Shown: positions 965-63,130, counted from the first letter of the whole stretch. The stretch is 63,130 nucleotides of DNA, filler included, from Globobulimina sp. (GCA_003354225.1; 20 parts of 20 records of this genome joined end to end with filler, not necessarily neighbours in it); one strand, 5' to 3'. Notes: a model not told the origin generated them from the letters alone. Made by a program: numbers and translations.

Positions 965-2893
965 ATGGACGCATTAGAAACAACCAAAACAAGGAGCAAC
1001 GATGAAGCAAATATAAATGATATAAAGGTAGATCGTCGATTAAATTATATTTATTTCCAATGGTTTTTTATAATTTTTTTTACATTAATTGCGGTGATTG
1101 ATCGTTATACATTAAATATGTGGCCATTATGGGTATGTAATCTGTACATTACATAATATATAATATTGGTATTCATTGCAATATAAAATAAAATTAAGGT
1201 TGATTCGCCCGGTCCCACCATTCCAGGAAATTTTGGTGTCTCTGTTTTTGCCGTAATTGCGTGGGTCTCGTCGCGAGTATTGATTGTTGGGAGTAGCTAT
1301 ATTTTCTTATTTCAGACGCGCATTTTTTGGAATTGGTTTGGCGAATTAAAAATTGTCAATAAATATTTAAAGATTGGCGATATTATGCATGACAACATCC
1401 AGTTACATTATCGAGTGGGTTGGATGTTAATTGGTGTTCCCGTTTGCTTACATGTTTGGGCCATTGTATTTGCCGCGGCCTTTGAACAAAATTCAGTGGT
1501 TTTATATGGTTTGCTCTTTCTATGTAATGTTATATTTGTATACAAATAAATAATAATTTGATTCTAAGACTCGTGGATGCGACCAAACAATCCAGAAACT
1601 GGCAAAAGTATACCATTTTATGCAAACAATTTATTATCGTTGGGCATCAATGACGTTTATCGAATCGTGTCGACTTCGTTGACCTTCTTTATCTTAATTC
1701 CGTATTCAATCGTAAGATTTTGCAAAACTTGGAATTGGTCCTTGGCGCAATGGGTCCATTTATTTGGCGCCGCCATTTATACGGTGGACTTAATTCGAAT
1801 GAAATCGCATCCGCATTGCTGGGTTTTTAATCTCCCATTTATTTTGTGGTGGATTTGTGATCGATTATACGGTATCTTTATTTATCGACGCTGTGTGGCC
1901 ACAATTGTGAATAAGAGACGATTGGACAACGATTACTTGGTTTTGTACTTACGAATTAGCGACGAGTTGCATAGTTTGGCCAATATCGGAGATGTATTTT
2001 ATTTAAACTTATTAGAGTGTCAATTCGATCGAAGCCATCCTTTTACCACTTTTCAGAATCGTGGCTTTAAACGGCCACTAATTCGTAGTCAAGAATCATT
2101 ACATTTTGCTTGGAGTGGCCATAAATTTGCGATCAACAAAACAGCGCAGGATAATGAGGATTCGGTGTATGTAATGTCGCGCGATTCGACGGTATCGACG
2201 CAAATCGAGATTAATCCGCAGCAATTCGAGGATGAAGAAGAGGTGAAACGTGATGAAAATGCGGGCGCTGGCTTGCCGACAGCTGATTGTGACTGGAATT
2301 TGGGAGTAATTATGCAAATCCATCCAAACCGAGTGGCCGCCTGCAAAGGTTTGAAACGCAATACGTGGACTCAGAGAATTGAAGAATCAAATCAACGCTT
2401 TGTTGGTGGCTTACGTTGTTGGGGGCCGTATCGAAGCGAATATCGATTGTTGATGAAAGAGGAAGCGATGAAACGATATCCGGAGACAGAGGTCGTTTTA
2501 ATTGGCACTGGCTGTGGTTGCTCGTATATGGTGGACTATTTTTTGTATATTACAGCGAATGACATTCGATTGGATAACAAAGTGACAATGTATTTTACTG
2601 CTCGCAGTGTGCCGATGTTCCAATGGTTTACAGATATTACTTGCAAACAGCATTACGACAATTTTTATGTGAATGCGCATTTAACATCGCATCCAAATGT
2701 GGCATATGATAAAAAAGGAAAAGTAAAATCGCGAGATTCAAATATCGGGAGGTTATCATTTACGGAAATATTGAATATTGCTGCTCCAAATACCCATGTC
2801 TTTTTTTGTGGCAATCCGTCCGTTCAACAACAAGTGGAAAAATTGTGTAAATCACAAAAATTAAATTATCATAAAGGACATTCATTTCATTAA
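965..2893 (+). CDS. Ferric reductase / NADPH oxidase-like flavocytochrome (exons 965-1132, 1199-1508, 1569-2893)
   Basis: GT-AG introns join three ORFs in frame. His-bearing TM helices, FAD motif SHPFT, GPY, IGTGCG and FFCG NAD(P)-binding motifs. Confidence 0.8.
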
Positions 2894-3065
2894 GACTTTT
2901 AAAAAAAAAGCGTAATATATTAAAATATAATAAAATTAAATATTAATCAAATACGTATCGGTATGCAGATTGTAGTTATCTTTTAATTTTTTTATTTTCT
3001 TTTTCTAAATACAAATATCTGACTATTACCGTACGTTTTTGATCTAATTTCATGTTAATTTACAA

Positions 3066-3165
3066 NNNNNNNNNNNNNNNNNNNNNNNNNNNNNNNNNNN
3101 NNNNNNNNNTTAATTAATTAANNNNNNNNNNNNNNNNNNNNNNNNNNNNNNNNNNNNNNNNNNNN
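3066..3165. other. Artificial contig-joining linker (first of 19; the others start at 6230, 9394, 12557, 15720, 18883, 22046, 25208, 28370, 31531, 34692, 37853, 41013, 44173, 47333, 50493, 53653, 56813, 59972)
   Basis: Identical N-run + TTAATTAATTAA (stops in all six frames) + N-run roughly every 3.16 kb; flanking sequences are unrelated and genes are cut at the edges. Confidence 0.99.
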
Positions 3166-3446
3166 CTTTATTGTTTGACATGATGATCGAGCTGAAAGTT
3201 TCTCCAATGACCGCCTTCCCCGATTTTATGCAATTGGTAGACGAGAGACTGTTCCATGGGTGCGCCGAGTGGTCTAAAATATATACGCTGTTCGCCTTTT
3301 GTGGCAAACTTTGCATTAGTTGTCTGGACAAGGGTATACCTCAAGTAATCGGCAATGTGGCCGATTGGCTGGCCATCTTTTTGGACAGCAAATTAACAGA
3401 GTGGGTAGCAAACAATGGCGGTTGGCAGTATGTGATAAAAGAGTGA
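3166..3446 (+). CDS. Bcl-2 family protein, 5'-truncated, with no C-terminal TM anchor
   Basis: BH1-like LFHGCAEWSKIYTLFAFCGKL and BH2 LTEWVANNGGW; stop 6 residues after BH2. Confidence 0.85.
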
Positions 3447-3546
3447 TCAAACGTTGTTGTTGTGTTATTTGGTTTTATATTTATACATAAATAACTTTTT
3501 ATTCTAATATTGTATCCATATAACATATATAAAAATAGAATTTTTC

Positions 3547-4005
3547 TTAAAATTTATCGCCTCTTATTCTTCTAGCCAATTGCATATCCTTAGACATGAT
3601 TGTTACACGTTTGGCATGCAGAGCGCACAAGTTGGTATCTTCAAATAGACTGACGAGGTAGGATTCGCTTGCTTCCTATAATAGGAGGTCTAACAATTAT
3701 TGTTATACATGATATAGTTATACCTGCAAGGCGGCCAAAGCTGCGCTTTGAAATCTTTTACCAGGACATATATCCTCAGCTATTTCTCGCACCAGACGTT
3801 GAAACGGTAATCGTTTTATCAGACGCTCTGTCGATTTTTGATATTTTCTAATTTCCCGAAGTGCCACGGTACCCGGTCTGTATCTGTGGGGTTTTTTTAC
3901 TCTCGCTACATCGACCGGCGACGGTTTTAAGACCAATTGTTTTCTTGGGGCTTTGTTGGGGGCTCGGGCCATATTTTGTCTGACAATTTGTTTGGTACGC
4001 GCCAT
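3547..4005 (-). CDS. Divergent histone H3 (H3.3-derived), 136 codons; exons 4005-3724 and 3675-3547, 48-nt intron 3676-3723
   Basis: MARTKQ...[23 protein letters not shown]...[16 protein letters not shown]...[48 protein letters not shown]. The second exon is not in the ORF track. Minus-strand AATAAA at 3498-3503. Confidence 0.95.
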
Positions 4006-4207
4006 AATGATGATGTTGGGGGAACGTACAAGCAAGGACCGACCGACGACCAGACTGATGGATTTTTAAAAAACCCTGAGCTATCCAATACTATTTAAAT
4101 GGGTCAGAACAGAAATGTTGTCGCGGTGCAGTAGTAAATAAAATAAACACAGTTTTTATTGCATAAAGAATCGTATATCAATTCATATAAACAACAAATA
4201 TATATTT

Positions 4208-4612
4208 TTATGAATCTGAAAGAAATACATCTAGAAATCTTTGTCTGTATTCGCTGTCAAATTTTAATCTGATAATAGGGTCCCAGGCCCCTGACATCAA
4301 ATAATCGAAAACTTCCTTATATGTAATAATTGGATCAGCCCGAATCCATTGGGCGAAAGTTTCCATTATAATTCCCCGGTTCATTTCATAGACCAGATTT
4401 GTATTTTCTATGAACGCAGTCACTTTGTCTTTGTAGGAGGGGTCTTGTTTTATGGTTTCTGGGGCATCGATACAAATACGTTGTTTGACAGACTTGAAAA
4501 ACAAATTTTCTATTTTTCTTTCTGTAGCCAAGAGACATTCCTGACATATGCAGTAGGACAAAGCTTCACTACACATAATTTTTGATACGAATGAGTCCTC
4601 CGTCGTCGTCAT
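4208..4612 (-). CDS. Hypothetical protein of the Polinton-like element (CxCxxC near the N-terminus)
   Basis: Open frame with probable start MTTTED at 4612; minus-strand AATAAA at 4155-4160. Confidence 0.6.
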   Translation of the reverse strand: MTTTEDSFVSKIMCSEALSYCICQECLLATERKIENLFFKSVKQRICIDAPETIKQDPSYKDKVTAFIENTNLVYEMNRGIIMETFAQWIRADPIITYKEVFDYLMSGAWDPIIRLKFDSEYRQRFLDVFLSDS

Positions 4613-4726
4613 TATTTTTATGATAAAGGATATGAAAAAACCGGTTTGTGTTAGCCGGGTCAATAAATACAATACATTGTGAAAACATATAAAATTCTAT
4701 ATACATATATGAGAATAACGGGTATT

Positions 4727-5188
4727 CTATTTGGTTAAACGTATCGATTCCAGCATGGTGCGCAGTTTAGCATTTTGAACAATAAACAAAGGTACGACGG
4801 TAGCTAATCCGAGCAAATACAGAAAATTTTCTAAACCGATAGGATAATGAGACGGTTTCAGTAAGTTATTATGCAGGGCAGACATTAGTTCGACAAAATT
4901 CGATCCCGATATTATACGCTTGTCAATAACTATCTCCATGGTACCCGGCATAATCCTGAACACATCGTCGGATAGACGGGCCAAGTATTTCATAATTATT
5001 TGAGCATTTCTACGATAATTTTTGGGCATTATTAGCAAGATATCACGCCAATCGGAATATTCCGGGCTGGGACTTCTGGATTTTGACTTTTTCACTCGTT
5101 CAATATTTACATTGTTGACAACACTGCTGGACAATCTGTCAAAACTTTCGGGGCTGACCAAACGATAACGTTTAACGACGGTAGACAT
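4727..5188 (-). CDS. Conserved Polinton/adintovirus-type hypothetical protein
   Basis: Pattern IL...PKNY...A......L...EIVID...I.GSNFVEL...P.GLE.F...L....VP...V.N resembles an ORF common in Polintons; starts 3 nt after the ATPase stop. Confidence 0.65.
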   Translation of the reverse strand: MSTVVKRYRLVSPESFDRLSSSVVNNVNIERVKKSKSRSPSPEYSDWRDILLIMPKNYRRNAQIIMKYLARLSDDVFRIMPGTMEIVIDKRIISGSNFVELMSALHNNLLKPSHYPIGLENFLYLLGLATVVPLFIVQNAKLRTMLESIRLTK

Positions 5189-5191
5189 TTC

Positions 5192-5911
5192 TCACGGAGT
5201 GACGTAACAAAATTTTTCCTCCTCTTCTAGGAGACCAGTTTTGAGTCGACACCGCCTGGGACACTGGACAGTACAATCAATCAATAGATAGCCATAGGGA
5301 TTGGCGTTATGGCGTAATTGATCACGTATAGCCATTTCGTAGGCCTCGGCCACATAATTCTTACCACCGGGACCGACTTTGGGATATAGCTGTCGATTTA
5401 GATGTTGGAGAACAGACATGTCTCGCGGCGACTGAAACAGGACGATCATCGAAGCGTTTCTACTGCAAGTTATCCAATTCACATGCCGACTTCCATACAA
5501 TTGATGAGCAACAATAAATAAGCATATTTTAAGGTGATGGACCCCACCCACGGCGATACTGGTCAGCAGAGGTTCCGTTATACATTCGTGCAGACAATCG
5601 TCGATTATAATCATGGCGTATCCCTGCTCAGGTTTTCCTATATATTCTGGTTCAAGAACTTTTTCATTAAATTGCCTCGTCATTATCAATTTATCTCCAA
5701 AATGTTTTCTGAGCGCATCGTAGCACGGCTGACCACTAAATTTATGTACCAGTATTACACGTCTGATATCGGATGTAGGAAAAATATCGTTCCAATTTAA
5801 TAAAAGTTTATTCAGAAATTCGGACTTGCCCACCATGCTTGGCCCACAGATTATCATCGTAAAGGGAGGTTTCGGGAGTACGGACAAAGTTAAATCTTTT
5901 ATATCGTCCAT
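5192..5911 (-). CDS. A32/FtsK-HerA family DNA packaging ATPase (Polinton type)
   Basis: Walker A PFTMIICGPSMVGKS, Walker B IIIDD, HH-containing motif, RNASMIVLF.SPRD, PYGYLLID. Confidence 0.92.
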   Translation of the reverse strand: MDDIKDLTLSVLPKPPFTMIICGPSMVGKSEFLNKLLLNWNDIFPTSDIRRVILVHKFSGQPCYDALRKHFGDKLIMTRQFNEKVLEPEYIGKPEQGYAMIIIDDCLHECITEPLLTSIAVGGVHHLKICLFIVAHQLYGSRHVNWITCSRNASMIVLFQSPRDMSVLQHLNRQLYPKVGPGGKNYVAEAYEMAIRDQLRHNANPYGYLLIDCTVQCPRRCRLKTGLLEEEEKFCYVTP

Positions 5912-5920
5912 TTTTACTTG

Positions 5921-6229
5921 TCAAAATTTACATCGCAACATCCTGTCAGGTGTCAAAACAGAGGCCAATGGCGGATGGGCCACCCTGTTTATAAACCAGC
6001 TGTAAATGCTTACGTCATTCCACTGCGGCTCAGCGAACCATGAAATCACATCCTCAAAGGAGTATCTCATGGATAGGTAGAGGGAGAAGAAGATGCAAAA
6101 CATACCGCACAAGCAGGAATTAGGTCCTTGGAGCCTTTTTTCATTAAATTTCACAGATTTATTATTATCCGCTATAAATGTTTTAATTTCAGTAGGGATT
6201 TCATCATAATCCGTACCGACGGGATCGAA
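5921..6229 (-). CDS. Adenain-like (clan CE) maturation cysteine protease, 5'-truncated
   Basis: Frame open to the contig edge: FDPVG...NEKRLQGPNSCLCGMFCIFF, containing the catalytic Asp, oxyanion Gln and Cys motifs. Confidence 0.88.
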   Translation of the reverse strand, partial: FDPVGTDYDEIPTEIKTFIADNNKSVKFNEKRLQGPNSCLCGMFCIFFSLYLSMRYSFEDVISWFAEPQWNDVSIYSWFINRVAHPPLASVLTPDRMLRCKF

Positions 6230-6470
6230 NNNNNNNNNNNNNNNNNNNNNNNNNNNNNNNNNNNNNNNNNNNNTTAATTAATTAANNNNNNNNNNNNNNN
6301 NNNNNNNNNNNNNNNNNNNNNNNNNNNNNCTAGTTTATTATAATCTGTTTTAGTTTGCGCAAATACGCATTCTTTATCTCCTAAAATCTGTTTTTACAAA
6401 TCATCATTATTAATATACACATCATCCCATCCCTGATTATCCCCATTATAACATAGATTATTATAATTAT

Positions 6471-7778
6471 ATGGAGTATAAAAAAGATCAGGACGATCTT
6501 AATACGGCCATCAATGGGAATGTATCACGTAAAAAACGATCAGCAGCAAAGATTAGCTATTACCGTCTATGCACGACAGGAGGTGCGCCATTAACGGATT
6601 TATTACGTTATTTCGCCTTAATTGGTGAGATTGATTGGTCGCGAAATCACACAACGATCGACGCAGCAATTAAAGCATTCCAATTAGATTACAATGCGAC
6701 ATATAAATGTGTATTGATGATATCTTCAACAATCGCAGAATTAGCAGATATCCATAGAAATAAATCTGAGAAATTAGAAACGTTGACACAAAGCGCTTAT
6801 TTAACGGCACAAGGTTTGCAGTGGCAGAAATTTGCCAAATTTATTCAGCATGAATTACCAGATACATTACAGGGCAATGAAGGCCTTAAAGCATTCAATC
6901 ATTTTTTAATGAAACGGCGAAAGAAAGTGTTGGATCGAGGGTTGAGTGCTGGCGCCAATTTAAGTGATCGCAACATTTTAAATGAATGGAAACTCTCTAT
7001 TTTATCAAACGAACATCATAATACTAAAGAATCGCGATCATACGATGTTGGTATAACAAATTCGAAACCAATCAATAATATTACTCAACCAACTCAAAAT
7101 ACGACGAATTACATTCCACGGAGACAAAACATAAGAGGTCATAGAGGCCGTGGTCGGTACAGACGAAGATACCGTCATCGTGGAGGCAGAGGTAATTATG
7201 GTGGACGACAATATGGTGATCACAATAATAATTATAACGGTGAGCCACAACGTGGCAATTTTAGAGGAAGATATCACAGAAACGGTAGAGGCAATTTTAG
7301 AGGCAACAGAGGTGGTAATTCGCGTGGCAATTACCACGGAAATAATAATCAACGATCATATAACAATCATAACGGTGAAGGAGAGGGTGATTACAACCCT
7401 TCTCGTTATGAACACATGTATCAACCACCGAATAATCAACAACAACAATATACGAATCAACCACCATTTAAACGACCGAGATATAATCAAAATGGATATC
7501 AACAAAATGGATACAAACAATATAATCAAAAGCCAATGGAAAAGAAAGTCAATACACGAAAAATGAATTGTTATCATACAAGGAACGGTGTATATTATGG
7601 CGGCCCAGAATTAGTACAATATATTTGTGGTTTTCGTGAGAAAGGAAGATGTTTTTACAGTGCAGAACATGAGAAATGTGATTGGCATCACATGTGCAGA
7701 TTTTGTTTCATTGTCGATCGTCATATCTCGGATAGATGTGATAACAAAGGAAGTGGCAACGTATATGGATATGGATAA
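6471..7778 (+). CDS. Gag-like nucleic-acid-binding protein
   Basis: RG/RGG- and N/Q-rich region; C-terminal tandem CCCH+CCHC knuckle (ICGFREKGRC...CDWHHMCRFC...H....C). Confidence 0.7.
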   Translation: MEYKKDQDDLNTAINGNVSRKKRSAAKISYYRLCTTGGAPLTDLLRYFALIGEIDWSRNHTTIDAAIKAFQLDYNATYKCVLMISSTIAELADIHRNKSEKLETLTQSAYLTAQGLQWQKFAKFIQHELPDTLQGNEGLKAFNHFLMKRRKKVLDRGLSAGANLSDRNILNEWKLSILSNEHHNTKESRSYDVGITNSKPINNITQPTQNTTNYIPRRQNIRGHRGRGRYRRRYRHRGGRGNYGGRQYGDHNNNYNGEPQRGNFRGRYHRNGRGNFRGNRGGNSRGNYHGNNNQRSYNNHNGEGEGDYNPSRYEHMYQPPNNQQQQYTNQPPFKRPRYNQNGYQQNGYKQYNQKPMEKKVNTRKMNCYHTRNGVYYGGPELVQYICGFREKGRCFYSAEHEKCDWHHMCRFCFIVDRHISDRCDNKGSGNVYGYG

Positions 7779-8255: not shown

Positions 8256-9393
8256 ATGTTATTGAGTCTCTGTATACAAATATATATTCACTGTAAATGT
8301 AAACATTATATAGAATTGTATTTAAATCCATATTTATGGAATAATATTTTGTGGGACATAGTAAAATGTAGATTTAACAAAGCAATCAAGAATTTTAAAT
8401 ATGTGAAATCTAAATTGCATCGTCAACCGTATAATCAATTTGTTATTCATGCAATTAATCAAATTCCCATAGGAAATGATAGAAAATTACACATTTTGAT
8501 CAATCAAACCATCATTTGCTTGAAACATGGATGGAAATTAGGCATAACAAACAATGATAATATTAAAATGAATCAAAAAGTCAAAAGAATGCAAGATTTT
8601 AATATTTTAGAATTGATAGAAGTGGGTCGAAACTTATCTGAACAGATTGAATTAGGAAAGATTGGCCCGAGACAAATATTATTAAATAATGAAAAAATTC
8701 TCAATTTCATTCAATTAGTCGCTGTGGATAAGAAAACAGGCAAACCTGTCACAATTAAAATGCAACGATTTAGTAAAGCCAGAATTTGTAGACACGCTAC
8801 ATTCTCATCCTTGTGGACGTATAGTATCAATGCATTGACAGCGCCAATTGATTACAAAATGCAAGTCCCACTTTGCAAAGACTTCTGCAACAAATTAATC
8901 ATTATGGGGCGCTTTTGTCTCATGTTTAAGACAGATGGAGCGGATGCATTCAGACAATTGGGTATGACCCAGAGTCAATGGAAGTATATGGGTTATAAAT
9001 TTATGGGAATGGAGTTAGTTGACACCTGTGACATCTATGGAAGCAAAGGGGCGTCTAAACATTCACAAGATTTTGGAAATGTATTATTATTGGCGTTTAA
9101 AACATGGATCAATCCATTTTTATTGAATAATGAAAGAATTGATAATTTGGTATATATTGATGACCATATTGGGTTCATAAAATCATATCCTTTTTCAGAT
9201 AGAAATCGTGAAACATTTTTGATGAATAAATTTTTTGAATTTTTACGATTATGTGGCTACATTGAAAAGGCTGAAAAACGGAAAATAGTATCTTGGATAA
9301 TGGAAGTTTGTGGTTTAATTTATGATACAGTAGTGTTCCCGATAAGAGGTACGCATATTAGTACTAATATATATATATTAGTTACTAATATAT
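8256..9393 (+). CDS. Reverse transcriptase, DIRS-like, 3'-truncated
   Basis: KARIC, FKTDGADAFRQL, D.CDIYG at the LPFG position, YIDD, L...G....EK, E.CG...DT. Confidence 0.8.
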
Positions 9394-44172: not shown

Positions 44173-44310
44173 NNNNNNNNNNNNNNNNNNNNNNNNNNNN
44201 NNNNNNNNNNNNNNNNTTAATTAATTAANNNNNNNNNNNNNNNNNNNNNNNNNNNNNNNNNNNNNNNNNNNNTTCGATCAACCGCTAGTTCCTAAAAAGA
44301 AGGAGAAGAA

Positions 44311-44556
44311 ATGAGTAAATTAGAAGCATATGAATGTGATAGTTGTGGAAAATTATTAAAAACAGATAGCGAAGATCTTAGAACGGTATATGGTAATATT
44401 TGTGTTGGTATAAACGGTGGTATTGTTGGTAATAACCTTAAAGCCGGTAAAGTTATCACAGAATCACATTACTGTGTTGATTGTTTAGTTAGAATTGTTA
44501 AAGCGGAATCAGTTAGTAGAAGTCAAGAATCAGCATTATTTAACGCATTTGATTAA
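44311..44556 (+). CDS. Phage hypothetical protein (CxxC...CxxC)
   Basis: RBS AAGGAG upstream; zinc-ribbon cysteines. Confidence 0.75.
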   Translation: MSKLEAYECDSCGKLLKTDSEDLRTVYGNICVGINGGIVGNNLKAGKVITESHYCVDCLVRIVKAESVSRSQESALFNAFD

Positions 44557-44566
44557 AGGATAATAT

Positions 44567-44800
44567 ATGAAATATTACGTAATTGAGACTAATGATCGTG
44601 AGACTAGTGTAACTGAAATGGATAGAGAATTATTAATGGACTTCATCCAACCAGAAGAGTGGTGCGATGAGGAGCATAGAATTTTTATGACACATATAGA
44701 TAATACTATTACAAAATATTGGAAAATCAATGGAGTCCTTATCATTAAGGGTGAAATTGTTACACCAATTCCTACTAAAATTGTAATGGATATTGATTAA
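44567..44800 (+). CDS. Phage hypothetical protein
   Basis: RBS AAGGA; tight packing. Confidence 0.7.
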   Translation: MKYYVIETNDRETSVTEMDRELLMDFIQPEEWCDEEHRIFMTHIDNTITKYWKINGVLIIKGEIVTPIPTKIVMDID

Positions 44801-45001
44801 ATGAAGAATAAAGAAGACCTATACGAAGAATTTTACAGTGTAATTAGTTGTTTATTAGCGGAAGGTGTAGAATTCATGCTACCGGATGACTTATATTATG
44901 CTATTAAAGAAGAATGGGAAAAATATAACAAACTTTTATTACACAAAGATAAAATAAACAAACTTAATAAGGAGAGGTTAAAGAATGAAACGAACATTTG
45001 A
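44801..45001 (+). CDS. Phage hypothetical protein
   Basis: Abuts the previous stop. Confidence 0.6.
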   Translation: MKNKEDLYEEFYSVISCLLAEGVEFMLPDDLYYAIKEEWEKYNKLLLHKDKINKLNKERLKNETNI

Positions 45002-45275
45002 TAGAGATTTTCTAGTAAAAGAATTAGGATTACCATATGATGAATTTGATGGTGTTGAAATTATTGTAGATGATATTATTGATACATCTAGGTGGTCAAC
45101 AATTCATAATTTAATTTTTAAATATGAAGACAAATTTTACCAGACAGAATATTCAGTTGGTGCTACTGAATGTCAAGATGAAAGACCTTGGGATTATAGC
45201 GATACGGTGGATTGTACAGAAGTCCATAAAGTAGCTGTACAAACATTTGAATGGAAAGCGGTAGAGGGGAAATAA
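44985..45275 (+). CDS. Phage hypothetical protein (RWS...FY...Y..GATE.Q..P motif)
   Basis: RBS GAGGT; overlaps the upstream gene. Confidence 0.75.
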   Translation: MKRTFDRDFLVKELGLPYDEFDGVEIIVDDIIDTSRWSTIHNLIFKYEDKFYQTEYSVGATECQDERPWDYSDTVDCTEVHKVAVQTFEWKAVEGK

Positions 45276-45276
45276 T

Positions 45277-45576
45277 ATGAAAAAAGGATTTAGTTTAATT
45301 GAATTGATGATTGTAATTGCGATTATTGCAATTTTAGCGGCAGTTGTAGTAGGACTTTTTAAAAGTGACGAAGGCGTTACCACACAAGAAACCAGACAAA
45401 CAAATACACAAGTTTTAAACCTTAATGGATATAAAGTTATTGAAATTGATAAATGTCAATATATCTATAAAACTGATAAAGAAAGAATGATGGCTGAAAG
45501 AGGCTATGGATATCTGGCTCATAAGGGCAATTGTAATAATCCTGTACATGTTTATAATGATAGAAGAGGTGAATAA
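45277..45576 (+). CDS. Phage protein with a type IV prepilin N-terminal cleavage/methylation motif
   Basis: MKKG|FSLIELMIVIAIIAILAAVV; C-terminal IDKCQYI...HKGNCNNPVH. Confidence 0.85.
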   Translation: MKKGFSLIELMIVIAIIAILAAVVVGLFKSDEGVTTQETRQTNTQVLNLNGYKVIEIDKCQYIYKTDKERMMAERGYGYLAHKGNCNNPVHVYNDRRGE

Positions 45577-45866
45577 TGTTTAAAAAATGGATTAGAAATT
45601 GGTTAGGAGTTGAGACAACCATAGACGAGGAAAAAATAGACAAACAAATAAGAAAATTGATTAAGATTTCATTTATCGAGGCATTTGAAGAAGAGCTATA
45701 TTCATATTTTTGGGATAAGCATGAATGGAGGGATCTTCGAAATACGTTAAGTTGTACAATAGCTAAAAAGGCTAAATATCACCTTAAAGAAGAATTTGAA
45801 AAACTTAATACAGCAGAAAAATTCATTGACGATGTTGTTCATAGAATTAAAATAAAACAATTGTAA
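45576..45866 (+). CDS. Phage hypothetical protein
   Basis: TAATG overlap; RBS GAGGT. Confidence 0.7.
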   Translation: MFKKWIRNWLGVETTIDEEKIDKQIRKLIKISFIEAFEEELYSYFWDKHEWRDLRNTLSCTIAKKAKYHLKEEFEKLNTAEKFIDDVVHRIKIKQL

Positions 45867-45952
45867 TGAAAAATAAACCAAAAGTAGATCTAGATTTAGA
45901 TGAATGTTTATATATCGTTATACTAATTCTTATAATATTTTATATATGGTGA
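45866..45952 (+). CDS. 28-aa single-TM phage microprotein (below the ORF track cutoff)
   Basis: TAATG overlap; MKNKPKVDLDLDECLYIVILILIIFYIW*. Confidence 0.5.
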   Translation: MKNKPKVDLDLDECLYIVILILIIFYIW

Positions 45953-45957
45953 TTGAA

Positions 45958-46200
45958 ATGGTAACAAGAAAAACATGGAAAGAATTCCAAGATACAAAAC
46001 TTCTATGGTGGATCAACAGAATTCTTCATACTTTTGGTTGGGCCATTATATTAGAAATGGATGGGTGTGATATTGTTAATGTATATCCAGCTAGAGTTAA
46101 ATTCAGAGGTTTTGATAAAAACTCAGAAGAAAAGGGATTCATTGGTATTACACAATATCTAACTGATAATGTAGAAGAATTAAACGAAGAGGTAAATTAG
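45958..46200 (+). CDS. Phage hypothetical protein (W.EF....LLW.IN..LH.FGWAI...YPARV.FRGF)
   Basis: Likely start MVTRK, 5 nt after the microprotein stop. Confidence 0.75.
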   Translation: MVTRKTWKEFQDTKLLWWINRILHTFGWAIILEMDGCDIVNVYPARVKFRGFDKNSEEKGFIGITQYLTDNVEELNEEVN

Positions 46201-46201
46201 T

Positions 46202-46609
46202 ATGAAAGTATTCATATCTGACGAAACATTTACAGTTAAAAATAGTAAAAACATTGGATTCGAATTCTACAATGCCGATATCACAGATTTTAAAGATACT
46301 GTAGACGAAATTGTAAAAGTTGATGGCAAATTCTATAGAGTTCGTACATTTGGCACTTGTTTTAAAGATGAAACATGTTGTACTAGGTGTGTATACATTA
46401 CTACAGAACCTATAGACTTCAAATATATTTGTTTAACCGATAATCTAGTTCATAATGCTTTATCAGTAGGTATGGACTTAGAAGACATTATTATTGAACT
46501 AGTAATGACTAAAAATGAGTTATTTGATGAATTAGTTGATATTCGTAGGAATCAGGTTAATCATTATGTAATGGTGTCTCCTAGAGCTGTCTACGAAAAT
46601 AACCCTTGA
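46202..46609 (+). CDS. Phage hypothetical protein
   Basis: RBS GAGGT; tight packing. Confidence 0.7.
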   Translation: MKVFISDETFTVKNSKNIGFEFYNADITDFKDTVDEIVKVDGKFYRVRTFGTCFKDETCCTRCVYITTEPIDFKYICLTDNLVHNALSVGMDLEDIIIELVMTKNELFDELVDIRRNQVNHYVMVSPRAVYENNP

Positions 46610-46655
46610 CATACCAAAATTGATATGCTAGACTGTACCAAGACTTAAAGGAGGT
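46606..46655 (+). promoter_or_regulatory. Sigma70-type promoter and RBS
   Basis: TTGACA (46606-46611), 17-nt spacer, TG-n-TAGACT (46629-46634); AAGGAGGT before the ATG at 46660. Confidence 0.8.
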
Positions 46656-46659
46656 CAAC

Positions 46660-46917
46660 ATGAGTTACTATTATTTTATGTCAGTGTTAGCTGGAGTATT
46701 TTCAGTAGGCTTGATGCATAATATGGGCTATAAATTAGCACGAGATTGTGGCGAGTATTATACAATTACGATTTTTACCACATTACTATCTGCTACCTTT
46801 ATTTTCACACCCTATTTAAATTTTTATGTTAGTGTTATGAGTGTGTTATTTTACATCGCTGTAACACTGTACGAATTATTAAATATACCAATTTTTACAA
46901 TAAATAAAAGGAAATAA
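46660..46917 (+). CDS. Phage small membrane protein (3 TM)
   Basis: Strong RBS; hydrophobic sequence. Confidence 0.7.
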   Translation: MSYYYFMSVLAGVFSVGLMHNMGYKLARDCGEYYTITIFTTLLSATFIFTPYLNFYVSVMSVLFYIAVTLYELLNIPIFTINKRK

Positions 46918-46918
46918 T

Positions 46919-47239
46919 ATGAATAATATAGAGTATTTCAACATCCCTTCTTACTTTAATAGTAGAAGTTGGTTTAAAATTAACAAAGAACAAAATACAA
47001 TATTAATAGTGAAGGCTAGTATAGATTGGAGATATACGATTGCTAACACTACATATGAAGATTGTATTTTCAAGGTTGATGAACTTAAAGCAATCGATAA
47101 AGAAGAATTCGATAATGCTTATGACATGGCTATTCATACTTTAGACTCTTTATACAAAGGTTGTAACCCAAACCCCGTATCGTCTAGAATCTGTAGTTTG
47201 GGAACTAAATGTTGTAATATGGAACATGGAGATGAATGA
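46919..47239 (+). CDS. Phage hypothetical protein
   Basis: Tight packing; RBS AAGGA. Confidence 0.65.
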   Translation: MNNIEYFNIPSYFNSRSWFKINKEQNTILIVKASIDWRYTIANTTYEDCIFKVDELKAIDKEEFDNAYDMAIHTLDSLYKGCNPNPVSSRICSLGTKCCNMEHGDE

Positions 47240-47432
47240 TGGTAAGAGTGGGTTATATATCAGAAATACACCACTGTTTCGATTGTTTTCAACTCAAACA
47301 TGAGTGTAAATGTGGAGAAGTTATGGGAATATNNNNNNNNNNNNNNNNNNNNNNNNNNNNNNNNNNNNNNNNNNNNTTAATTAATTAANNNNNNNNNNNN
47401 NNNNNNNNNNNNNNNNNNNNNNNNNNNNNNNN

Positions 47433-59971: not shown

Positions 59972-60169
59972 NNNNNNNNNNNNNNNNNNNNNNNNNNNNN
60001 NNNNNNNNNNNNNNNTTAATTAATTAANNNNNNNNNNNNNNNNNNNNNNNNNNNNNNNNNNNNNNNNNNNNAGTGATCAGTTATTATTACAATTAGGAAT
60101 TTTGTATTTTAAAAATATTTTTTTAGTATTATAGTATTGTACAGTATAGTAGAAGCTCCTAAAGCTAAA

Positions 60170-60507
60170 GTGCCCCGACCCTATTTTTCTGAGGGGGGAA
60201 GGGAACTGTTATTAGTAATTCCAGTTTTGTAGTAGTAAAATGTAAAGTAATAAATGCACTTTTATGTTTTTATGTTTTGTTTGTTGCATGTTGTGCTGTC
60301 CAATCTTGCATGATTTAAAAAGCTTAATAAGTGGTCAGCTTAAGGTAAGTAGTGACACAAAGCAACCAAGAGCATTCGAATCAACGTCAAGGAAGAGAAT
60401 TCATCACTCGGTAACATCAAGTATCAAATAAGCTACCAACTTATCACAATGCTTTGACTTTTATAAATTGTCCCATTAGGACAGTAAAAAGATACGTAGT
60501 GGTAACA
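60170..60507 (+). mobile_element. Possible 3' end of a second LTR element (PPT + LTR)
   Basis: GAGGGGGGAAGGGAA (60191-60205) directly before TGTTA (60207); TAACA at 60416 and 60507; AATAAA at 60249. Confidence 0.45.
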
Positions 60508-60643
60508 TATGTGGAGGTTGAGTTTATTTTTATTTTTTGTAATGAATTAGATCAAATCGATTCTATTTTCAGTTCGTTAAGCACTATCCTATCAGCCAGA
60601 GGTACGGCAAGGACTACAAAACAACAGGAGGAGCAGGAAGGCA

Positions 60644-63130
60644 TGTAATATCAAGTGCTTGAATTACACTTAGCAAGTCGATCTGCGTACAATCAACGCT
60701 ACACTGCCAATATTCAGCTACAAAGTTGTTAAGATCCGTCATTTAACAAGTCCTTCAAATCTATTGACGAGCAAGACCGATGCCAAAAGACTACGGTAGC
60801 CGTTCAGATTACAAACGAAATAGACGTTATTTGACGCGACGTCAGCCTTCCCTTGCGTCACTTTGCCGTCTCATTATGAAGAAATAATATTTGCATATTA
60901 TTGTCTCAAGTTGTGCAGTGCCTTATCGAACTGTAAACCGTCCATTTATTGTTTGATACGAATTCTCATTCTTGATATTAGATCTCGATTGTTATTTGTT
61001 GGTAATTGAAGCTCATCATTACTTTATTGCTTTTATTATTCGTGTTATTAAAGAAAGTCATCGAATTATCAGGTACACCTTTTTACCATGCAATATAGTT
61101 TAGTATTGGTTAAGTGAGCCGATCCTTTATCATCGTTCTCGGTTTCGCAGGATCGCTAGGCATCATTTTAACAGTATTGTGCGGGTTATCTACCAGCGTG
61201 TAAAGACCGTGAACTGAGTTCTGGAGTGCTTTGCCGTTGGTAACGTCACTCATCCGTATAGTACTGTTACAGTGGTGGCAGCTAACTTGCGTTGTTTTGT
61301 GTCATCGACGGGCTTCGCAATTGGAGTACCTTTTATGCTGACCTATTACCCATAGCAATTCGAGATGTCCGAAACACCTCAAAGTCATTTGCCTCGTCCC
61401 CGTACACGTTCAAATATGTCACGATCGTCCGAAAGTTTAGCGTCCGGTTTGCCAGAAACGTCGAAGGCAAAACGTCAAGAAATAATCGCGAGTCGTAGAG
61501 AAATGCCGTCAGAAATACTTCACGCAGCGAGTGAAAATTTACCGTCAACAAGTAGACCTGACAGTACGGATGAACTTTTACTCGATACATCCGAAACTTT
61601 GCAATTATCGCCTAGTGCAACGCCAAAAGGAGACGGAGATATTGAAACGCAGTTTAGTACTTGCAGAAGGCCTGAAGATTTAGTAGAGAAAGTAGATCGA
61701 CAGGAGAAAAATCCTGACGAAACGTCTGCAGTTTTCGGACCGACTAGCGCTGTCAAACCAACTGGAACATCGACCAAATTGGGTTTTGTAGATGGTTTTG
61801 CAGGTGCCATGACAAATTTATTTCGCCCTACGCGTTCAGGCGCATCATCACGTAATCAGCCAGTCGAACCTAATCTGGCCGAACAATCAGTAATTTCGGC
61901 GACCGAATTACAAGCTCAAAAGAAAGCCGATCGTTTGCAAAAAGAAAACGAGAAATTAAAACTTTTGAATGCGCAAAATCGTACGGATTTATGTAACGCG
62001 AAACAGAGCGAAAAGGATACCGATGCGATGTACCAAGATTTATTAATTTCGCATGCGAAAGATACTGGCAAAATGCAGCGTGACAAAAAGGTAGTCGAAT
62101 CAGAAAATGGTCTTTTAATGCGAAACCAACAGGATTTACTGCAAAATCAATCACGTTTGGCTGAGAAAAATAAAACAGCCGAAACGGTGGCGAAACACCT
62201 TGCGCTTGAAAATGCAGAGTACAAATTAAAGTTGCAAGCGTCAGAACATGTTGTACAGACATTAGTTAATGACCCAAACGTACAAGTAATGCAAACTTCT
62301 TTTAGGAGTGAACCACCAAGATCACAATCGTCACAAGACTATTTGGGTAAGAATATTATTCCTGGAAATGTGCGCAAGCCTCAATTTCAAACGGGTTTAT
62401 TAATTGGTCAACATTTTTCTCAAGAGACTCAACATTCGTCTCGATCACTTCATGGCACTCAACCGATTGATCCAACTGTACATGACTCAGGTAAATTACG
62501 GGGAAAGTCACCTCAACAGATACAGATCGAAAAGCAACTACCCCCTTTGTATGAGAAATTTACAGGAGAGCGTCAACCGCGAGATCGTAGCCATCAAAGT
62601 CAGTCAGTACCTATTCATTTGGGTCCTCAGGCACAAGTATTACCAATGCCAGTAACCAAGTCACGCCAGGAACGTGAACTGCCAACAAAAGGTTACAAAA
62701 ATACAAGTCGGGACGGTTCAGAGAGATATTATCGATCAAAAGGGGCGCAAAGTTATTCGCAATACGATATTCCGGCTGAAAGAAATTCAAATGATTTTCG
62801 CGATCGTTCCAAAAGTCGAGTTAATGTTAGTGACAATTGGGAAAAACCAGAATTGTCCTATCATAACGATAGAGATCGTACAAGGGGCGACAGTCAAGCC
62901 GACCACACCCAATTTAGAGAAAATGCGCCGCGAAAACAAACCCCACATCCAACGGGGGCTCGAGTCGACCAAACCATCGATCGAACCGTTTATCTGGACA
63001 AAGTACGTACACGATTCGATCATCGTGTAGTGACACCTGAATTAATTTTTTCTGGCTTACAGGAAGAAAATTTAGAGTCTTGGATCCAGAATTGAAAGCC
63101 GATTATGATGCATGGATGTATTACAATCAG
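60644..63130 (+). mobile_element. Gypsy-like LTR retrotransposon 5' end: LTR about 60644-61271, PBS 61273-61282, gag from 61365
   Basis: TGTAA...TTACA termini, ATTAAA at 61047, TGGTGGCAGC primer-binding site 1 nt after the LTR, then a long ORF. Confidence 0.75.
61365..63095 (+). CDS. Gag-like polyprotein N-terminus (disordered region, coiled coil, start of capsid)
   Basis: Ends in P..IFSG...ENLESWI, a typical retrotransposon capsid start; appears to continue in the -1 frame (ELKADYDAW). Confidence 0.7.
   Translation: MSETPQSHLPRPRTRSNMSRSSESLASGLPETSKAKRQEIIASRREMPSEILHAASENLPSTSRPDSTDELLLDTSETLQLSPSATPKGDGDIETQFSTCRRPEDLVEKVDRQEKNPDETSAVFGPTSAVKPTGTSTKLGFVDGFAGAMTNLFRPTRSGASSRNQPVEPNLAEQSVISATELQAQKKADRLQKENEKLKLLNAQNRTDLCNAKQSEKDTDAMYQDLLISHAKDTGKMQRDKKVVESENGLLMRNQQDLLQNQSRLAEKNKTAETVAKHLALENAEYKLKLQASEHVVQTLVNDPNVQVMQTSFRSEPPRSQSSQDYLGKNIIPGNVRKPQFQTGLLIGQHFSQETQHSSRSLHGTQPIDPTVHDSGKLRGKSPQQIQIEKQLPPLYEKFTGERQPRDRSHQSQSVPIHLGPQAQVLPMPVTKSRQERELPTKGYKNTSRDGSERYYRSKGAQSYSQYDIPAERNSNDFRDRSKSRVNVSDNWEKPELSYHNDRDRTRGDSQADHTQFRENAPRKQTPHPTGARVDQTIDRTVYLDKVRTRFDHRVVTPELIFSGLQEENLESWIQN

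Follow-up and report, generated by a model that had tools for sequence, protein, structure and literature searches.

What brings a histone H3 and a Bcl-2 homolog together with the protease and the genome-packaging ATPase of a virus within 3 kb of DNA? The question is posed by positions 3166-6229 of the window, by which we mean the whole analysed stretch of 63,130 nt from the Globobulimina sp. assembly (GCA_003354225.1). The window consists of 20 unrelated, length-sorted contigs of 3059-3065 nt each with N runs around TTAATTAATTAA between them, and the locus coincides exactly with one 3064-nt contig (GC content 0.395), bounded by N runs and TTAATTAATTAA linkers on either side. Because the window joins separate contigs, the neighbours of the locus provide no genomic context. 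Where open reading frames (ORFs) of the window seem to continue as 'XXXX...LIN', the linker has been translated and the extension is artificial. A first-pass annotation had described the locus as a candidate host-takeover cassette of an animal-infecting Polinton-like virus. We assign a probability of about 0.7 to the reading of the contig as part of an integrating, adintovirus-like double-stranded DNA virus of the Polinton/Maverick class, or of an element derived from such a virus, with H3 and Bcl-2 as accessory genes.

All six genes of the first-pass annotation are present, namely five co-oriented minus-strand genes running from the protease (PRO) through the ATPase and two ORFs (ORF153 and ORF154) to H3, and the Bcl-2 gene facing them. 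The stop codons of Bcl-2 and H3 are separated by 100 nt, as had been stated. The gene list was thus complete, but it had missed an intron in H3 and the truncation of two genes by the contig ends, which cut PRO at one side and Bcl-2 at the other. Coding sequence and intron together make up 88% of the contig. The remaining spacers measure 9, 3, 54 and 202 nt, the widest lying between ORF154 and H3.

The packaging ATPase placed the block among known viral families. An exhaustive phmmer search retrieved 1614 relatives at E ≤ 1e-3, of which 214 passed E ≤ 1e-10 and six passed E ≤ 1e-30. We aligned 60 sequences, comprising the contig protein, its ortholog from a related locus termed L001, and 58 mostly full-length relatives drawn from 150 listed relatives and the matches of the search for close relatives described below. 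Pox_A32 was matched by 43 of the 60 proteins, Adeno_IVa2 by eight and FtsK_SpoIIIE by six, and the Walker residues G28, K29 and D105 were invariant throughout the alignment. The contig protein belongs to the packaging ATPase family of Bamfordvirae-type viruses, with the A32/FtsK-HerA-type ATPase characteristic of Polinton/Maverick-class elements. Together with the same gene order in L001, these family matches bear out the earlier description of a Polinton/Maverick-class, adintovirus-like block, and we hold the assignment of the element to the Polinton class to be highly probable. Close relatives are scarce: a collection of 5.8 billion proteins contained only four, one of them on a retrievable contig (L001). 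Some more distant relatives sit on contigs of 0.6-1.5 Mb and are therefore genome-integrated. In the ESM Atlas, clusters with Pox_A32 lie next to the ATPase; their labels are Nematoda, Preplasmiviricota, Arthropoda and Mollusca, which we treat as leads only. A PDB sequence search with the ATPase profile returned P-loop matches only, and viral contigs yielded no relative when they were scanned with the ATPase, P0286, P0011 and Bcl-2.

L001 (PJEL010007397.1, 8629 nt) was the sole locus obtained from a metagenome scan. From left to right, it begins with two unknown ORFs, a 273-amino-acid (aa) ORF, a 119-aa basic ORF and a set of frames of about 500 codons (2360-3860). These are followed by PRO, the ATPase and the homologs of ORF153 and ORF154, which share 72%, 84%, 70% and 33% aa identity with the contig proteins, respectively. 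After the ORF154 homolog, the opposite strand encodes a C2H2 zinc finger (6327-6539, minus strand), which matches Pfam zf-C2H2_jaz at 2e-6. It is followed on that strand by a pair of overlapping ORFs, 7743..7207 and 7283..6735, which we call integrase-like solely by a motif pattern of Maverick integrases. The right part contains a complete 156-aa Bcl-2 gene and a tRNA-Leu(UAA) gene. The two loci align at the DNA level over PRO-ATPase-ORF153 (74.3% over 1509 nt) and over the Bcl-2 coding sequence (85.3% over 285 nt), the latter in the opposite relative orientation, and the Bcl-2 alignment stops about 4 nt past the stop codon. The tRNA-Leu(UAA) gene (8397-8481, minus strand), 76 nt past the Bcl-2 stop, could be host flank at the element end or viral cargo.

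The set of about 500 codons in L001 likely encodes a double-jelly-roll capsid protein. In the Atlas, its first 298 codons lie closest to clusters described as 'double jelly roll-like', which come from Mollusca, Nematoda and Arthropoda, and further neighbours include clusters of the Sputnik major capsid protein and of Capsid_N from nucleocytoplasmic large DNA viruses; in the top cluster, 39% of the members carry DJR-like_dom. A frame change and a stop codon each interrupt this frame at one point. As the integrase-like ORF (6735-7743) is likewise spread over two overlapping frames, the L001 copy looks partly decayed, barring assembly errors.

The remaining genes of the block are a protease fragment and the two ORFs. 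The PRO fragment reads FDP...QGPNSCLCGMFC and contains the active-site Asp, Gln and Cys, while the His position falls beyond the contig end; the 202-aa ORF of L001 reads GHF...FDP...QGPNSCLCG and presents His, Asp, Gln and Cys in order. In Pfam, Peptidase_C5 gave E 0.01 for the contig fragment and 0.043 for the L001 protein, and C48 gave 0.024 and 0.03, all below the curated thresholds. The L001 ortholog also aligned to residues 111-130 of adenain (1avp) across QGPNSxxCGxFC, weakly (E 0.34) and on the active-site segment, which we take to hold adenain Gln115 and Cys122. ORF153 and ORF154 are both lineage-specific, and neither matched a Pfam family above threshold. The ATPase and an ORF153 homolog were called as one protein in P0011 (380 aa), a 46%-identical relative on an 8658-nt ENA contig, and this sharing of one frame argues that ORF153 is a conserved ATPase partner across the lineage. 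Its AlphaFold2 model was unusable, with a predicted local distance difference test score (pLDDT) of 52.1. ORF154 is fast-evolving and Cys-rich; the match to its L001 homolog has an E value of 3.5e-23. Although synonymous sites are close to saturation between the contig and L001, the ratios of nonsynonymous to synonymous substitution rates are low (ATPase 0.07, ORF153 0.20, Bcl-2 0.14) and show purifying selection, under which the three genes were kept functional during divergence. In the reading that we favour, the tightly packed PRO-ATPase-ORF153 genes would be the end of a virion morphogenesis module, with the maturation protease and the genome-packaging motor, and the accessory genes lie downstream of it.

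The Bcl-2 homolog exceeded the Pfam cutoff by a wide margin (63.2 bits against 31.4) and has a Bcl-2 domain with BH1 and BH2. The full-length protein of L001, which shares 81.5% aa identity with the contig fragment, matched 139 distinct PDB sequences at E ≤ 0.01, the best being Bcl-xL (1.5e-17), to which it aligned through BH1 and BH2. BH1 reads EWSK in the contig and DWSK in L001, as opposed to NWGR in Bcl-xL, and W-x3-GGW of BH2 is kept. In all four complete C-termini (the contig, L001, P0161 and P0162), the protein ends six residues past the GGW of BH2. Because the ORF stops there, the homolog has no tail anchor, and the C-terminal transmembrane segment of the membrane-anchored Bcl-2 members is absent. 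Besides the L001 protein, only four relatives were found, with 56-64% identity and all on contigs shorter than 1.5 kb.

The histone is a bona fide H3. Both exons matched the Pfam Histone family, jointly covering profile positions 7-122, and the protein combines the H3-type histone fold (alphaN to alpha3) with an ARTKQ tail. Exon 1 shares 68-72% of its residues with cellular H3s and exon 2 shares 67-83%, and identity across the fold region is likewise 67-83%. The closest relative among 8000 scored candidates is P0165, a protein of 99 aa encoded by a Logan contig of 1898 nt, which is 87% identical to exon 1 and ends at the same point, between ALQ and V, as does exon 1 of the contig; the other full-coverage matches among the 8000 reach at most 68% identity. 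When aligned with the five cellular H3s and P0165, the tail keeps ARTK4Q, K14APRK18QL, K23 and K36K37PHRY. However, K9 is replaced by Q in the contig and by R in P0165, S10 is replaced by N, three residues are inserted, and the A-R-K27-S stretch is deleted; all of these alterations occur in both members of the variant. The protein has neither K9 nor K27 in the ARKS contexts that define canonical and replacement H3 (H3.1/H3.3 type), and it is a divergent variant rather than a canonical H3.

The organisation of the H3 gene also differs from that of metazoan replication-dependent histone genes, which are intronless and carry a 3' stem-loop. The contig H3 contains a 48-nt intron, which might share its position with an intron of animal H3.3 genes, and no Rfam family, the histone 3' stem-loop included, was matched at E ≤ 1. 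An AATAAA motif is located on the minus strand at 3498-3503, 44-49 nt beyond the H3 stop. In these respects, the gene would resemble an independently transcribed, spliced and polyadenylated replacement-style histone gene. The GC content at third codon positions (GC3) is 0.40 for H3, 0.39-0.49 for the element genes and 0.55 for Bcl-2.

Do Bcl-2 and H3 belong to the element? Bcl-2 was linked to the homologous block in both loci, as the first-pass annotation had supposed from one, and because two diverged and differently arranged copies keep it within 3 kb of the ATPase, it can be regarded as element cargo. H3 is flanked by ORF154 and Bcl-2, both of which are element-linked in L001, which places it inside the element if the contig is collinear; a Logan contig from sequencing run X1 furthermore bridges Bcl-2 to the H3 intron. 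We therefore consider it probable that both genes are carried by the element, as had been proposed. It could be argued instead that H3 and Bcl-2 are ordinary cellular genes that flank an integrated Maverick-like element ending between ORF154 and H3. The widest spacer of the contig falls exactly there, but the Bcl-2 gene beyond it is the very gene that recurs near the block in L001 with 81.5% aa identity, despite a DNA identity of only 74% and a different arrangement, and two independent insertions beside Bcl-2 paralogs are unlikely. The spliceosomal intron, the TATA-like element and the AATAAA motif of its own give H3 the look of a cellular replacement histone gene, whereas its GC3 equals that of the element genes and the protein belongs to a rare variant, for which the 8000 scored candidates contained a single close relative, rather than being a canonical host H3. 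L001 lacks H3, and its Bcl-2 adjoins the tRNA-Leu gene, which is possibly host DNA; in the contig, on the other hand, H3 sits between ORF154 and the element-linked Bcl-2. A terminal inverted repeat or another element boundary between the ATPase block and H3/Bcl-2 would have pointed to flanking genes, and none was found: inverted and direct repeats in the contig amounted to short and weak pairs, the best inverted pairs between the two parts being 21-26 nt long at 77-86% complementarity. Taken together, we regard cellular flanking genes as an improbable explanation.

A different concern is that assembly or amplification might have fused a viral fragment with unrelated histone/Bcl-2 DNA into a chimera, given that the contig is short and comes from a fragmented assembly. 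Run X1 contains 81% of the sampled words of the contig, and its Logan contigs cover 30 of 30 bins. One of them (473 nt) spans 3258-3727, comprising Bcl-2, the spacer, H3 exon 2 and the intron, so that a second assembler joined Bcl-2 to H3 and the stretch 3446-3547, for which the first-pass annotation had asked for spanning reads, is bridged. The second such stretch, the ORF154-H3 junction at 4005-4208, is unbridged among the 11 pieces listed. Near it, the pieces end within 4016-4022 and 4172-4224. Both intervals contain substitutions and small indels (variant sites at 4016, 4022, 4173, 4198, 4204 and 4224), and such breaks are expected where copies differ. At a loose end at 4176, two of 30 letters differ from the contig, which indicates a second copy with the same ORF154-H3 spacer. 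Moreover, run X2, a marine metagenome from another study, yielded three pieces (3464-3595, 3931-4099 and 4943-5186), two with at least 99% identity and one with 95-99%; as they derive from H3 and ORF153, both parts of the contig co-occur elsewhere, too. With the linkage of Bcl-2 recurring in L001, a chimera seems very improbable. Runs X3 and X4 contained no piece matching the contig, and no RNA run was listed among those with sequence of the contig.

Run X1 also revealed the diversity of the family. Its 26 pieces fall into 14 with at least 99% identity, seven with 95-99%, four with 90-95% and one below 90%. A 973-nt contig carries Bcl-2 with 19 differences in 165 nt, followed by sequence equal to the L001 flank downstream of Bcl-2, so the arrangements of the contig and of L001 are both present in X1. 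Another X1 contig agrees with H3 exon 1 at 3827 and above, while its counterpart of 3797-3826 has diverged and is still H3-like, which points to at least one more diverged copy of the H3 variant in this run. The spread of copies and the interrupted frames of L001 fit a multi-copy, partly decaying integrated family, and a diverse viral population may be an alternative account of the spread. A tblastn search of the window with 11 L001 ORFs detected nothing more of the element in its remaining 19 contigs; only PRO matched, and the rest gave E ≥ 0.04. The coordinates of all features are collected in the table.

Table. Features of the contig at positions 3166-6229 of the window, with the evidence for each.
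Feature	Coordinates	Strand	Evidence
Whole contig, probable element fragment	3166..6229		N runs/linkers on both sides
Bcl-2 homolog, C-terminal 92 codons and stop; 5' part beyond contig end	3168..3446	+	Pfam Bcl-2, 3.5e-17
Spacer between convergent Bcl-2 and H3 stops, 100 nt	3447..3546		Sequence; spanned by X1 Logan contig 3258-3727
H3 exon 2, EASESYLV...RGDKF and stop	3547..3675	-	Pfam Histone, 6.6e-16, profile positions 85-122 of 122
H3 intron, 48 nt, GT..AG, GC 0.25, phase 0 after ALQ codons	3676..3723	-	In-frame stops
H3 exon 1, 94 codons	3724..4005	-	Pfam Histone, 6.4e-19
TATA-like TATTTAAA/ATTTAAATA, putative promoter element, ~90 nt 5' of H3 ATG	4092..4099	-	Sequence only
AATAAA, putative poly(A) signal closing the ORF154 unit, ~50 nt past ORF154 stop	4155..4160	-	Sequence only
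ORF154, 134 aa from first ATG at 4612, Cys motif C-x6-C-x-C-x2-C	4208..4672	-	33% aa identity to L001 5694-6053
ORF153, conserved ATPase partner	4727..5188	-	70% aa identity to L001
Genome-packaging ATPase, A32/FtsK-HerA type, Walker A GPSMVGKS, Walker B IIIDD	5192..5911	-	Pfam matches of relatives, Walker residues
Putative adenain-like (clan CE) cysteine protease, C-terminal 102 codons	5921..6229	-	71.6% aa identity to 202-aa ORF of L001

Several observations weigh against a Polinton-class element with H3 and Bcl-2 as cargo, or against the role that we propose for these genes. On their own, the ATPase and PRO of the contig each miss the Pfam thresholds, the ATPase reaching only E 0.061 against Pox_A32. 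Neither the contig nor L001 showed PolB, terminal repeats or a target-site duplication; long inverted repeats were likewise absent from both (best pairs of 26-28 nt at 75-77% complementarity), and neither contig holds both element ends. The capsid-like ORFs of L001 matched no Pfam capsid family, the single-sequence AlphaFold2 model of the N-terminal one had a pLDDT of 28.9, and the Atlas recognition of 1791 stays below the mark of 2300, which makes it a lead only. The integrase-like ORFs of L001, which occupy different frames, did not match Pfam rve at E ≤ 1. H3 was missing from L001 (no tblastn match at E ≤ 1e-2), and its linkage to the element thus rests on one contig, in which the ORF154-H3 junction has depth throughout, yet is the stretch left unbridged. 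Run X1 is a non-independent support, since it may be the source data of the window itself. Regarding function, the replacement of NWGR by D/EWSK in BH1 means that BH3 binding by the Bcl-2 homolog is not assured. Loss of the strict ARKS motif is also not rare among H3s. Among the 114 best-scoring H3 matches that start with ARTKQ, a set ranked by likeness to the contig variant, strict [AT]RK[ST] motifs occurred twice in 76, once in 23 and not at all in 14, some of the latter still keeping a lysine.

How does the element compare with others already described? With adintoviruses, for which a family Adintoviridae has been proposed (Starrett et al., 2021, PMC8502044; Buck et al., 2024), the contig shares a putative adenain-type protease and an FtsK/HerA-IVa2-like ATPase, as well as a probable adenovirus-like virion module, a presumed nuclear integrating lifestyle and an accessory Bcl2. 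Bcl2 and IAP homologs have been observed in adintoviruses (PMC8502044), and the Bcl-2 half of the cassette is therefore not new. Zinc-finger genes termed 'Ziftr' are described for some adintoviruses (bioRxiv 10.1101/2024.03.25.586562), which the C2H2 ORF of L001 recalls. In contrast, adintoviruses are defined by OTU-PolB, a Hexon recognisable by BLASTp and an rve integrase with a chromodomain (bioRxiv 10.1101/2024.03.25.586562), whereas neither the contig nor L001 contains PolB. The likeness to Polintons/Mavericks lies in a putative PRO and an A32-type ATPase beside probable capsid genes, in an integrase-like ORF near the L001 end, and in multiple diverged copies within one sample. The terminal inverted repeats, 6-bp target duplication and pPolB of Polintons/Mavericks were not seen in the contig or L001, nor was a Pfam match to their rve integrase.

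Histones have precedents in other viruses. In a survey of viral chromatin genes, histones are reported for several giant-virus families and Polydnaviridae, and the text on Adintoviridae speaks only of chromodomains (bioRxiv 10.1101/2021.11.30.470311). The published adintovirus text mentions no histone, and the literature searched yielded no Polinton/adintovirus-class element with a core histone, although supplementary figures or tables could list one. The contig shares a virus-borne histone-fold gene, presumably active on viral or host chromatin, with the Marseilleviridae, which have histone doublets, with other Nucleocytoviricota and with the polydnavirus histone. It differs from giant-virus histones in its small Polinton-class carrier, in being a single bona fide H3 about 65-70% identical to cellular H3, in its spliceosomal intron and in a tail without K9 and K27. 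The 'Histoid' of adomaviruses and a tailtomavirus is only remotely histone-like, unlike the contig H3 (bioRxiv 10.1101/2024.03.25.586562). In IMG/VR, we identified 48 H3-bearing viral loci with 47-78% identity to the contig H3 exon. None of the 48 had a strong match to the contig ATPase family in the fetched flanks, and two had weak matches (E ~4e-5) on contigs of 72-112 kb, one of them labelled as a giant virus (GVMAG). Viral Bcl-2 homologs are known from herpesviruses, poxviruses and asfarviruses and, as the E1B-19K type, from adenoviruses. These proteins and cellular Bcl-xL share the Bcl-2 fold family with BH1 and BH2 with the contig homolog, which differs by the absent C-terminal membrane anchor and by D/EWSK instead of NWGR in BH1. 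Overall, the histone is the unusual part of the element, being a gene that we did not find reported for the Polinton class, and Bcl-2 is known cargo in the published adintovirus text.

Which organism hosts the element? The Bcl-2 family is not known outside animals and their viruses, and we slightly favour an animal host, with a protist host as the less probable option. Of the earlier interpretation, the Polinton-class element with Bcl-2 and H3 is supported, infection of animals is a slightly favoured reading and an origin from a co-sampled invertebrate a possible one. The contig might instead derive from a resident, multi-copy endogenous Maverick-like virus of the protist, which would have obtained Bcl-2 by an earlier gene transfer without any co-sampled animal. 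The contig does belong to the protist assembly, but the record set of L001 is the unbinned remainder of a foraminifer-associated metagenome and was left outside the foraminifer bins (PMC6783311), a status compatible with a co-sampled invertebrate without proving it. A comparison of tetranucleotide profiles, which had been suggested as a check, was indecisive for contigs of 3 kb. With a mean r of 0.41 against the other 19, where most contigs reach 0.5-0.6, the contig deviates mildly; contig 8 has the same value, and contigs 15 and 20 deviate far more. Its best match is L001 (r 0.67) rather than its neighbours in the window. Several diverged copies in X1, from at least 99% to below 90% identity, are consistent with a resident element, and Polinton-like integrations are common in protists (PMC10120064). 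The Atlas labels of the ATPase and the capsid ORF, which are leads only, name Nematoda, Arthropoda, Mollusca and Preplasmiviricota. With the restriction of the Bcl-2 family also standing against it, we consider a resident protist virus possible, though less probable than a virus of an animal.

Other contigs of the window deserve a brief description. Contigs 15 (44273-47332) and 20 (60072-63130) are strong tetranucleotide outliers (mean r 0.03 and 0.21, respectively), and the assembly may contain DNA from at least two organisms. The contig at 9494-12556 encodes a CDC48/p97 AAA ATPase (CDC48_N 5e-16, AAA 1e-45) with short introns and has a GC content of 0.47, compared with about 0.32 for most contigs. 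The contig at 6330-9393 contains two long ORFs, one Arg/Gly/Asn-rich with a Cys/His-rich C-terminal stretch and one with a YIDD motif. Both are retroelement-like by eye and matched no Pfam family at E ≤ 0.001.

Returning to the Polinton-class element with its two accessory genes, we speculated on what H3 and Bcl-2 might do for it. As the H3 gene retains a spliceosomal intron, it would have been captured from cellular genomic DNA. It may be expressed as its own polyadenylated unit, and the product could be built into nucleosomes, either of the virus or provirus itself or of the host chromatin. Polinton/Maverick-class viruses face chromatin silencing because they are nuclear and integrating. With K9 and K27 missing, the variant could not take the methylation marks of H3K9me/H3K27me silencing, and such an unmarkable H3 might keep the element transcribable. 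The Bcl-2 homolog could meanwhile hold off mitochondrial apoptosis of the infected cell. The role of a 'host-takeover cassette', for which the first-pass annotation had made the locus a candidate, is therefore putative. The silencing-resistant H3 is a tentative and rather unlikely mechanism in our judgement. Slightly more doubtful still is the complete picture of a small integrating virus with an intron-bearing host H3, unsilenceable nucleosomes and a soluble Bcl-2 sparing the cell, which would be the first case of a core histone in this class.

If true, a virus-borne H3 without the capacity for H3K9me/H3K27me would represent a simple and testable counter-measure to silencing, and an unsilenceable viral H3 would be a new route of epigenetic escape. 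The range of virus core histones would then extend from giant viruses to elements of 15-25 kb. Should the carrier turn out to be a protist, the occurrence of Bcl-2 beyond animals and their viruses would be notable in itself. The pairing of Bcl-2 and H3 suggests that small elements gather host-control genes much like large DNA viruses do.

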